From a virus (lineage: Duplodnaviria; Heunggongvirae; Uroviricota; Caudoviricetes), in the IMG/VR virus record IMGVR_UViG_2534681674_000028, positions 1 through 40,960 of that record: DNA of 40,960 bases, one strand, 5' to 3'. Within the stretch, counting starts at the first letter, position 1. Every line of letters begins with the position of its first letter. Made by a program: the position numbers. Below are positions 1 to 3,000 of this stretch, one piece after another.

Positions 1-3000
1 TTATCTGTCAATTCCCCAGCACGCCAGCGCGCTCTCCTGGTCACGCCGTGAGACCTGACCGTAGCAGTTGTTTGAGCGAATACGGCAGTCTCTGCCACCG
101 TCCTTAATCCACCAGCGAATCGCCTCGCATGCTCCCCTGCGGTCACCAGCATTAATCCGTCTGTAAAACGTCGACGGGAAACACTTACCGGGGCCAATGT
201 TGTACGGACAGAATGACGCAATCCCCGCTTTCTGGGGTTCGGTCAGTGGCACTCTGATGTTTTTCTCCACCCATGCCAGCGCCTTATCACGTTCAATGGC
301 GTTAACCTGGTCGCATTTCCCCTTCGACAGCTTCATGCCAGGAATAACAGGCTTACCATCCACCCGGGTGGCTCCACGGCAGATGGTCCAGATACCCGCA
401 CCATCACGGTATGCCGTGGTGTGGTTACCTTCTTTTTCGTCAAGAAACTGGTCGAGAATTTCAGGCGCAGACGCACCAGCGGCAATCAGCGCCAGAACGG
501 CAGCCGACAGGCCGTATTTGATTTTGGTGTTCATGGATATTTATCAGGATTTATCGGCAACAGATAACGAGCCAGCTTATATACGTCCTTTAAGATAAGT
601 CAGTCCTGGATGAAACCAGTAAGCCGGCACTTTTTTAAAGGGCGGGTTGTCAAACTCACGAAGAAGAGCCTCCCGCACAACTGCATCCTTGTCCGCACCA
701 CTGGCCAGCGCTTCAATCTCAGCAGCTATCTGCAGATATCCCATGCAACGACCAATGCACTTCATCAGCCCCTGCTTTTTATTGTTCTTCAGGTAATCAA
801 TGGCAAATTCAATGAGCTCCTCACTATGCTGGTGCGATGGCGGTGTTACTTTTCCATTTTCTGAGATGGTTATTTTCCCAGCATCACCGGATACAACAAA
901 GGATGGCCGGTTACACTCCCATTCCAGGTCACTGAAATTATCATTATGAATACTGAAACACTCTGCGAGATTTCTGCTCATCACTTTCCGGCAATAATCG
1001 TAAAACGCAGCAAACTGCTCATCGCGGCGTTTTTTTCAGGCTGCTGAAGATGCTCTTTCAACCATGAAGCGCAGCTTAGATTCGCCGCGCGATCAGGAAT
1101 AGCTTCTTTCATTTCGTCTGCTGCAAGCACCTCATTTTTTGTTGGGGTGCTTTTTTTCAATTCAGCGATATAGCACTCCAGTTTTTCAATACGCGATTCA
1201 ACATCATCTTTTTCTGACCGCAGTGTTGACGGCGGCATCTTCAGAGAACAAGTAATTCTTCCCGGTAGCTTTCCTTTGTAGGTTATCAATACATCCTGCG
1301 CATCTAAAATTACGGGGCGCTTTTCCGGTGACGGTTCATCCCCTTCGCATAACCCGGCAACAATATCCATGAAAAACTGCTTCGCCTGTTTTTTCGCCTC
1401 AGCTTCGTAGAACTCCAGCGTGGCACCTTCAGTACGGTCAAGACTAATCGCCACATGTGGCAACAACAACGACGGATGCCCGCCAATTTCAAGTGCCACA
1501 GTAACAGCAATCTTATCCGGGTAATTATTTATCTCTTTAACAACCAGTTCGTATTTTTTCTTCATCGCTTTAGTCTCCCCGCGCCGTCTTACGGCGGTCC
1601 TCCCTGATTTTGAAATACAGGTTAGTCAGATACGTCAGCAGGCCAAACAGCAGACTCCCCAGTACACCTATTGCCACCCACTGGGACGGAGAGACTTTGT
1701 CCAGCAGCTGCAGTAACCAGTATCCCGTCCCACCGCTGACGTGTGTATGACACACCCGTTGTGATTTTTTCCATCTGATGTATGTCTCCGTCACCGCCGA
1801 CAGAAAATGAAAGTAAAGAAAAACAAAAAAGCCGCCAGTGTCACCCACTGACGGCCAACGCCGGGAGCCGTGATTATGGCATTCAGGCTCTGCTAAAAAT
1901 GCCAGATAACATTCCGGCCTCCCCTGATTCAGGTTATAAATGACACAATATCTTGACAACATCCGTCACTGTCTGTCAGAAAATGTACTGCCAGATATAA
2001 GTATCATGTGAAGTACATCTACCCGTTTTAGCCAGCGTCCTTCAGAGTGGGCGCTGGCTTTTTTATTATGCTGCCGGTGCATTTATCTCCAGCACCAGAC
2101 TTTCTATCTCAACGCCATACGCTGCATTTTTTGTAACATCCGTCAGCGTCAGCGCATTCAGTCCCAGTGTCAGACTGTCTTTTATAACCTGGAATGCCGG
2201 GCCAGCCACTCCATTCAGTTTCGGAGTAACCGTGGCACTGCCGGCGGTGAACACCAGCTCCAGCGTCTGCCAGTCGTTACCGTAATCGCCGAACTCCCCC
2301 AGCTTCGTGTTTCCGGCTTTCCTGTGATGCATCAGATTCACTCTGCCGTCAGTGGTCTGAGTGAAGTACGACATCAGGAACGGATTACCGGTACCCGTCA
2401 TCGCCACACCATCAGGAACGGGAGCATCCGTATACAGATAAATCCCCAGCCCGAACTGATTGTTGGTCAGCGCGCCTGACAGGCGGAACTTACAGGTCAG
2501 TCTGCCGCCCTGTGTCAGCAGGGTAATTGCGTCATCCACCGGATGCGTCAGGGACCAGGTTTTATTGCTCTGCTTGGTGATCTTAAATACACCATCTGAC
2601 AACTGAATTCCGCCATCCTTAATGCTCCAGCCCTGCGCAGCAGCCTCTCCGTCTGCCGGCAGCAGGGAGATTGTGCGAACGGCGTATCTGCAGACGGACC
2701 CGATGGCGTGTTGCCGCCGGGCGAGGGTTTGATTTCCGGTGCCTTACCACTGATGAAGGCTGAGGTGCGCCCGGCTGCGTTCAGAATAGCGGTTGCCAGA
2801 CGATCCGGAATAATGCTCCTGCGCGCCCATGAACTGAAATGTGTCGGGCGGTTTGATGATACCTGGTTTCCATTCGTTCTCGATGCCGCACCGTAATATC
2901 CTGATGCCGGAATATCCGGATCTTCTGCCGGCGCGTTAGTGGCGGTATTGACACCGTTACCGTCTGTCATGAAGGGCACAAAATAAACGCCCTCACTCTC

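Follow-up and report, generated by a model that had tools for sequence, protein, structure and literature searches.

A probable frameshift-split YdfR-family gene between the holin and endolysin genes of a lambdoid prophage

The gene ydfR (b1555) of Escherichia coli K-12 lies in the lysis cassette of the cryptic prophage Qin, in the order essQ (class II holin), ydfR, rrrQ (lysozyme); it begins 4 nucleotides (nt) after the essQ stop codon, directly precedes rrrQ, and encodes a DUF1327-family protein of 103 amino acids (aa). Longer relatives have been catalogued: E. coli O55:H7 and other strains carry an intact 329-aa ‘YdfR family protein’ (P0001, P0122), and the Shiga toxin 2 (Stx2)-converting phage 86 carries gp05 (YP_794052, 268 aa, also named YdfR family protein) between its holin gene S and its endolysin gene R. 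One published study of Stx2a flanking regions ends at S and leaves the YdfR-family gene outside its coverage. We analyzed a 40,960-nt stretch of a caudovirus genome (the window, positions 1 to 40,960 of IMG/VR record IMGVR_UViG_2534681674_000028), which over the lysis region does not differ from draft contig AEZJ02000027.1 of E. coli 97.0246. At its left end two open reading frames (ORFs), here called ORF194 and ORF135 after their lengths in residues, lie between a holin and a phage lysozyme gene. A first-pass annotation had taken them for two genes of no recognisable family, placed unusually between holin and endolysin. Our comparisons make it very likely that positions 577-1565 instead hold one lambdoid-prophage YdfR-family accessory gene, split by a frameshift and occupying its usual slot between a pinholin and a signal-arrest-release (SAR) endolysin.

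Each of the described systems matches the locus in some respects and departs from it in others. K-12 YdfR shares the family and the position, but it consists of the N-terminal domain (N-domain) only, whereas the window gene is a split copy of the two-domain form, which has 329 aa and a coiled-coil linker. The intact 329-aa form of O55:H7 is flanked by the same holin type and endolysin family as in the window; it differs in having a run of eight adenines (A8), hence a continuous ORF, where the window has seven (A7). Phage 86 gp05 likewise joins N- and C-terminal domains between S and R, but it is shorter, has another linker that lacks the A8 run, and is followed by an extra reverse-strand ORF before R (gp06, 104 aa; locus L002, 3225-3539). 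Where such an additional ORF stands between the YdfR-family gene and R, as also in locus L027, the S-R gap measures 1263-1445 nt.

The split gene and its intact relatives

Both ORFs proved to belong to one family. ORF194 matched Pfam PF07041 (DUF1327, YdfR family) over residues 1-100 with 134 bits against a gathering cut-off of 25 (E = 2.2e-39), and the two ORFs divided the 296 positions of phrog_1085 between them, ORF194 taking positions 1-159 and ORF135 positions 162-296 (3e-91). The nearest complete genome is that of E. coli O55:H7 RM12579; at the same site (locus L001, 3539-4528) it has a single ORF of 329 aa, to which the window DNA is 100% identical in the N-half outside the A-run and 99.3% identical in the C-half. 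In a base-by-base alignment to L001 the sole length-changing difference within the gene was the A-run, A8 in L001 and A7 in the window, and restoring one A in silico produced a 329-aa ORF identical at 319 of 329 residues to P0122, whose database name is ‘YdfR family protein’. Because one A is lost from A8, the frame closes at 194 aa, and the C-domain falls to a second ORF, of 135 aa. The codons concerned (P176-E177-K178-K179) fall in the linker between the two domains. ORF194 thus comprises native residues 1-178 (the DUF1327 domain, approximately 1-100, and then the coiled-coil linker) followed by a 16-residue out-of-frame tail (179-194), while ORF135 is the native C-terminus (the linker end and the conserved C-domain, its residues ~23-135), starts at an internal V-M of the intact protein and carries the motifs GRCMGYLQ.AAEIE, DFDNPPFK and W.PG.TYLK.RI. 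The two domains occupy one ORF in the relatives and different frames in the window, whose copy, judged by this alignment, is a disrupted member of the two-domain YdfR-family form. The ORF coordinates, the lengths and the 4-nt overlap given by the first-pass annotation agree with the sequence (TGA, the stop of ORF194, occupies 983-981; GTG, the start of ORF135, occupies 984-982); what fell away was the reading as two genes and the absence of a family.

Table 1. Features of the window that bear on the split gene and its surroundings
Feature	Position	Strand	Description
SAR-type endolysin R (phage lysozyme)	1-534	-	Pfam PF00959, 3.4e-24; phrog_7 endolysin
ORF135	577-984	-	135 aa, GTG start, ATG next codon; C-terminal fragment of the YdfR-family gene
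ORF194	981-1565	-	194 aa, ATG start; N-terminal fragment of the same gene
Frameshift site	1030-1036	-	A7 on the coding strand (T7 on the + strand), CCT GAA AAA AAC, codons 176-179; A8 (P-E-K-K) in intact alleles
P21-type (class II) pinholin S	1570-1774	-	Pfam PF04971, 1.4e-25; stop 1570-1572
GGAG Shine-Dalgarno-like element	1575-1578	-	Within holin 3' end, 9 nt upstream of the ATG at 1565; read from sequence
NanS-p-type esterase	2548-3915 and 2066-2602	-	455 aa and 178 aa; split by a 1-nt deletion near 2682
IS3-family transposase ORF	9942-11156	-	404 aa; HTH_Tnp_1, HTH_21 and rve integrase core; prophage early region

The genes at the window's left end (Table 1) are all on the minus strand, and in the direction of transcription they run from the NanS-p-type sialate esterase (in two pieces) through the P21-type class II holin, ORF194 and ORF135 to the phage lysozyme. 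That the ORFs lie inside the lysis cassette, as first annotated, was borne out by the Pfam matches to either side of them, and the class II holin/lysozyme position is the one that ydfR has in K-12. The gap after the holin stop, previously counted as 5 nt, is 4 nt (TAA AGCG ATG), the same spacer as in Qin. A further 42 nt separate the ORF135 stop from the endolysin, whose N-terminus has a hydrophobic, SAR-like stretch (MNTKIKYGLSAAVLALIAAGA). Window positions 1-3 are the endolysin stop codon and coincide with the start of contig AEZJ02000027.1; since the window begins at the contig start, the spanin genes, with the remainder of the late region, lie outside it.

A gene between S and R is normal for this cassette type, given the Qin layout, the viral loci and the complete genomes. 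In 26 of the 26 viral loci inspected, an S21-type pinholin was followed by the YdfR-family gene, with 4-nt stop-to-start spacing, and then by the SAR endolysin; the gene was matched in 2389 of 5426 complete E. coli genomes, in 491 genomes with at least 80% coverage, and Stx-converting phages whose sequence is known, phage 86 among them (gp05), carry it too. On account of the GGAG 9 nt before the ATG and the 4-nt spacer after the holin stop, the gene is tightly coupled to the holin and presumably expressed late. We would expect it to be transcribed with the late/lysis operon, its translation coupled to that of S. The 194-aa product, which resembles the natural N-domain-only variants (103-211 aa) including K-12 YdfR, would probably retain the role of the N-domain; the C-domain is probably lost, or may be produced at a low level by reinitiation at the UGAUG junction.

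The deletion was not peculiar to the window. The exact 194-aa protein, named ‘YdfR family protein’, occurred on 75 contigs in varied prophage contexts, and the complete genome NZ_CP032789 carries the A7 allele, annotated there by the Prokaryotic Genome Annotation Pipeline (PGAP) as a YdfR pseudogene plus a 134-aa hypothetical protein. On these occurrences we take A7 to be a real, circulating mutant allele. By locus, the run was A7 in the window and in L003-L012, A8 in L001 and 17 viral loci, and A9 in L064 and L065; an exact-pattern scan of viral contigs (n = 18) gave 15 with A8, two with A9 and one with A7. Among the best 60 complete E. coli genomes matching in a whole-gene search, 44 had the intact length and 16 were length variants, as measured by match span; roughly one in four of the close alleles bears an independent frameshift. 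Lesions were inspected in six of these 16, in L093 and in the viral locus L064, and five distinct ones were found: A8 to A7, A8 to A9, A7 to A6 in a second A-run (nt 409), a 2-nt deletion of AG (nt 603) and a 1-nt deletion of C (nt 482). Two of the five sit at A-runs. As the lesions are independent and various, the pattern indicates repeated damage at slippage-prone sites in a gene that would be under weak selection in prophages, and not programmed recoding.

Architecture and distribution of the family

In the alignment of homologs the protein begins with the DUF1327 domain (~1-118), continues through a coiled-coil linker, which is variable and includes the module EKKRRDEQFAAFYDYC, and closes with a C-terminal domain (C-domain) of ~115 residues, which has the invariant motifs GR.MG.LQ.AAE, P.K and W..PG..Y and no Pfam coverage. 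The family is narrow, with 105 representatives at 50% identity among 1.84 billion representative proteins. Because distant homologs (35-40% identity) keep both domains in one protein, the fused two-domain form is, as we read the alignment, ancestral. A scan for the C-domain in one genome per species returned only three loci, all in Escherichia or Shigella, and as sampled here the family occurs only in Escherichia and Shigella prophages, Stx phages included, and there only in pinholin/SAR-endolysin cassettes.

Within that slot the gene is a mosaic. Directly after the holin we found N-domain-only variants of 103 (K-12 YdfR), 183 and 211 aa and C-domain-only variants of 185 and 213 aa; in a common 305-aa variant (P0042, on 275 contigs), as in P0084 and P0116, the C-domain is replaced or preceded by an unrelated module of ~100 aa (RIQKNRERSANSEILDNFLKGTHLASDCF...). 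This module had no Pfam match, and Pfam scans of the alternative modules and of the distant homologs gave no informative domains. Over intact alleles the median dN/dS was 0.43 (N-domain) and 0.22 (C-domain), which means purifying selection, and on those values both are genuine coding domains. A transmembrane segment was not detected in the YdfR-family protein (maximum 19-residue Kyte-Doolittle hydropathy 1.09), and the intact form is predicted to be a soluble protein of 329 aa. AlphaFold2 models, weak as a whole (mean predicted local distance difference test (pLDDT) scores 51 and 65), suggested, with moderate confidence, a beta3-alpha fold for the N-domain and a beta3-alpha2-3 fold for the C-domain, whose core had a pLDDT of 71-90 and a beta3-alpha topology.

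Searches for more distant kinship were negative. Internal duplication was considered as an origin of the two domains and rejected, the profile-profile comparison of N- with C-domain giving a probability of 0.5%. A sequence profile search of the PDB returned nothing below E = 0.33, and fold and profile searches with the conserved C-domain found zero relatives. Residues 6-39 of P0092, a coiled coil in a C-domain-only variant, had a sub-threshold Pfam match to SlyX (E = 0.17). SlyX is another binder of the RNase E N-terminal domain reported in the same study as YdfR (PMC13232886); the match is most likely noise from coiled-coil composition.

Possible function and other explanations of the split

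The first-pass annotation could assign neither ORF a role, and in this it stands: every PHROG match was of ‘unknown function’, NCBIfam made no assignment for either ORF, PADLOC families at E <= 1 gave no match to ORF194 or ORF135, and neither Pfam nor the fold searches supplied a function. It had also named, as a result that would overturn its reading, a match to a well-characterised lysis accessory such as a Qin YdfR-type protein; the family membership holds through DUF1327, the description as a well-characterised lysis accessory does not. In the YdfR literature the sole experimental lead on function is a study of the K-12 protein, in which bacterial two-hybrid and co-purification placed YdfR on the N-terminal catalytic half of RNase E (Rne 1-597/598), YdfR residues 1-72 were sufficient for binding, and RNA co-purified with YdfR (PMC13232886). 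Over residues 1-74, the segment for which RNase E binding has been reported, the N-domain of the window is 42% identical to K-12-type YdfR. Because of this binding and the co-purifying RNA, we favour a role at RNase E over one in the lysis machinery, and tentatively suggest, as one possibility, that the YdfR-family protein is made late and modulates host RNase E and RNA decay in the cytoplasm. Host RNase E is also modulated by T7 gp0.7 and phiKZ Dip, both from lytic phages and of the early or middle class. These two would be its functional analogues only if the RNase E binding of YdfR reflects its role; they differ in that our searches with the YdfR family showed no likeness to them in sequence or fold, and in that the YdfR-family gene is late and lies in a lysis cassette.

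Several points weigh against a role at RNase E. Overexpression of YdfR altered few transcripts, and the authors could not exclude a contaminant as the RNA binder (PMC13232886). The link comes from a homolog at 42% identity studied under overexpression, and strict embedding in pinholin/SAR-endolysin cassettes also fits a lysis-related role. The strictness of this synteny makes lysis timing the main alternative, namely that the protein is a cytoplasmic regulator of the pinholin or the SAR endolysin, antiholin-like or a modulator of endolysin release, and does not act on RNase E. The gene stands between S21-type pinholin and SAR endolysin in all 26 viral loci and in K-12 Qin, always 4 nt past the holin stop, and a screen has linked ydfR to envelope integrity (cited in PMC13232886). 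Such synteny may, however, merely reflect common ancestry of one cassette. The protein lacks a transmembrane or signal sequence and resembles no known lysis protein in Pfam, PHROG, the PDB or fold searches; neither the transmembrane, SAR or lipoprotein signals of membrane-associated accessories (antiholins, spanins, releasins) nor likeness to lysis families of PHROG or Pfam was found. Moreover, the gene is often truncated, split or cut to either domain while the cassette persists, which shows that it is dispensable for cassette persistence. We regard a lysis-timing role as unlikely.

The split itself could also be read otherwise than as decay. Counting against simple decay, each of the five lesions is in the linker, with the ORFs of both domains still open; the gene may thus tolerate being split, or the split may even have a function. 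The A7 allele would then yield two working polypeptides, of 194 aa (N-domain and coiled coil) and 134/135 aa (C-domain), by termination-reinitiation at GUGAUGA. The ORF194 stop does overlap the in-frame GTG-ATG of ORF135 to give UGAUG, the C-domain ORF is open in 11 of 11 A7 loci, the allele is widespread on its 75 contigs, and N-domain-only and C-domain-only forms exist as separate genes at this very place. The retrieved A7 alleles, however, were all found through the exact 194-aa sequence; their N-halves are identical, so that recombination may have spread a single recent lineage. Ahead of the ORF135 ATG the only Shine-Dalgarno-like element is a weak GGA, the lesions at A-runs point to mutational bias, a frameshift within the C-domain is also known (P0048), and distant homologs have the domains fused. 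Functional fission is, to our minds, quite unlikely. So too, and very much so, is a switch in which the slippage-prone A-runs of the linker, through changes in DNA length, transcriptional slippage or -1 frameshifting, would alternate between the fused form and separate domains, with the N-domain targeting RNase E; pertinent here is that the A7 allele ends exactly on the UGAUG restart.

Programmed recoding, with A_AAA_AAC as a -1 ribosomal frameshift or transcriptional slippage site giving products of 194 aa and 329 aa (the latter with K179N), recalls the -1 frameshifts of dnaX and of IS3-family transposases. The likeness lies in the heptamer, which is in phase in ORF194 and conforms to X_XXY_YYZ, and in the -1 slip, which restores the native frame, and with it the long product, exactly; A7, A8 and A9 alleles all circulate. 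Stimulatory structure is missing, in that the downstream 90 nt had a minimum free energy of -17.2 against a shuffle mean of -20.7 (z = +1.18; 177 of 200 shuffles folded at least as well), and no Shine-Dalgarno-like element precedes the A-run. The in-frame A8 predominates (15 of 18 viral contigs have it, and 44 of 60 close complete genomes carry a gene of intact length), so that the out-of-frame state is not conserved, and unrelated lesions (deletions of AG and C, and the second A-run) break the same gene, as decay predicts. For want of downstream structure, and given A8 predominance and these other lesions, we reject recoding as highly improbable. An assembly artefact, with A7 a homopolymer error and the strain truly possessing an intact 329-aa gene, could be suspected from the draft status of the identical contig, from other short-homopolymer deletions private to the window (CC to C and GGGG to GGG in the holin) and from the 1-nt deletion that splits nanS-p. 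Against it, A7 is found in independent assemblies: loci L011 and L012 carry it and match the window fully across gene and endolysin, it recurs with the same N-half in L003-L007, L009, L010 and the complete genome NZ_CP032789, and the exact 194-aa protein is on 75 contigs; we give the artefact hardly any credence. Prophage late regions do carry cargo genes, and the 4-nt overlap and small sizes of the ORFs recall toxin-antitoxin-like operons; a two-gene defence or toxin-antitoxin module within the lysis cassette is nonetheless next to impossible, effectively refuted by the single-ORF relatives, as the ORFs are halves of one protein, neither has a PADLOC match, and the two-gene form shows no independent conservation. 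Decay of a single YdfR-family gene, with the deletion in its linker, is the reading we retain.

Neighbouring genes and existing annotation

The holin gene of the window is of the P21 type but is not intact. Within window positions 1725-1750 on the minus strand it has two 1-nt deletions 12 nt apart (at ~1743 and ~1731), ACACCACG becoming ACACACG (CC to C) and GGTGGGGAC becoming GGTGGGAC (GGGG to GGG). Both are absent from L001 and from L011 and L012, which are otherwise identical to the window. Because of these deletions the native start (MEKITT..., ATG at 1774) is out of frame with the C-terminal two-thirds of the holin; they are due either to decay in this strain or to errors at homopolymers in the draft assembly of 97.0246.

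Upstream of the holin, the NanS-p-type esterase found in two pieces in the window is intact in L001 (616 aa, with DUF1737, SASA and DUF6645), and in some other genomes a separate DUF6645 protein is annotated at the nanS-p site. ARAGORN detected no tRNA gene in the whole window; L001 has tRNA-Ile, tRNA-Arg and tRNA-Arg upstream of nanS-p, and the window diverges from L001 over positions 3916-4800. Farther along, the transposase ORF is continuous, and not the usual two frameshift-linked ORFs of the IS3 family; it suggests an insertion-sequence insertion in the prophage.

Even whole copies of the YdfR-family gene are annotated as broken. In L001 (3539-4528), L121 (401-1390) and further RefSeq genomes, PGAP reduces the intact 329-aa ORF to a pseudogene of 336 nt for a ‘YdfR family protein’, with the remark ‘incomplete; missing C-terminus’, and the remaining ~650 nt, conserved C-domain included, bear no PGAP annotation. 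For the split allele, public databases carry the N-terminal fragment as a YdfR family protein and the C-terminal one as hypothetical. The locus is thus best read as a frameshifted copy of a catalogued, functionally uncharacterised family in its usual place. What the comparison brings out is that the YdfR family is really a two-domain family, with a selected C-domain (dN/dS ~0.22) that has neither a Pfam model nor detectable fold relatives, and that the report of K-12 YdfR binding to RNase E is the sole functional handle on it.

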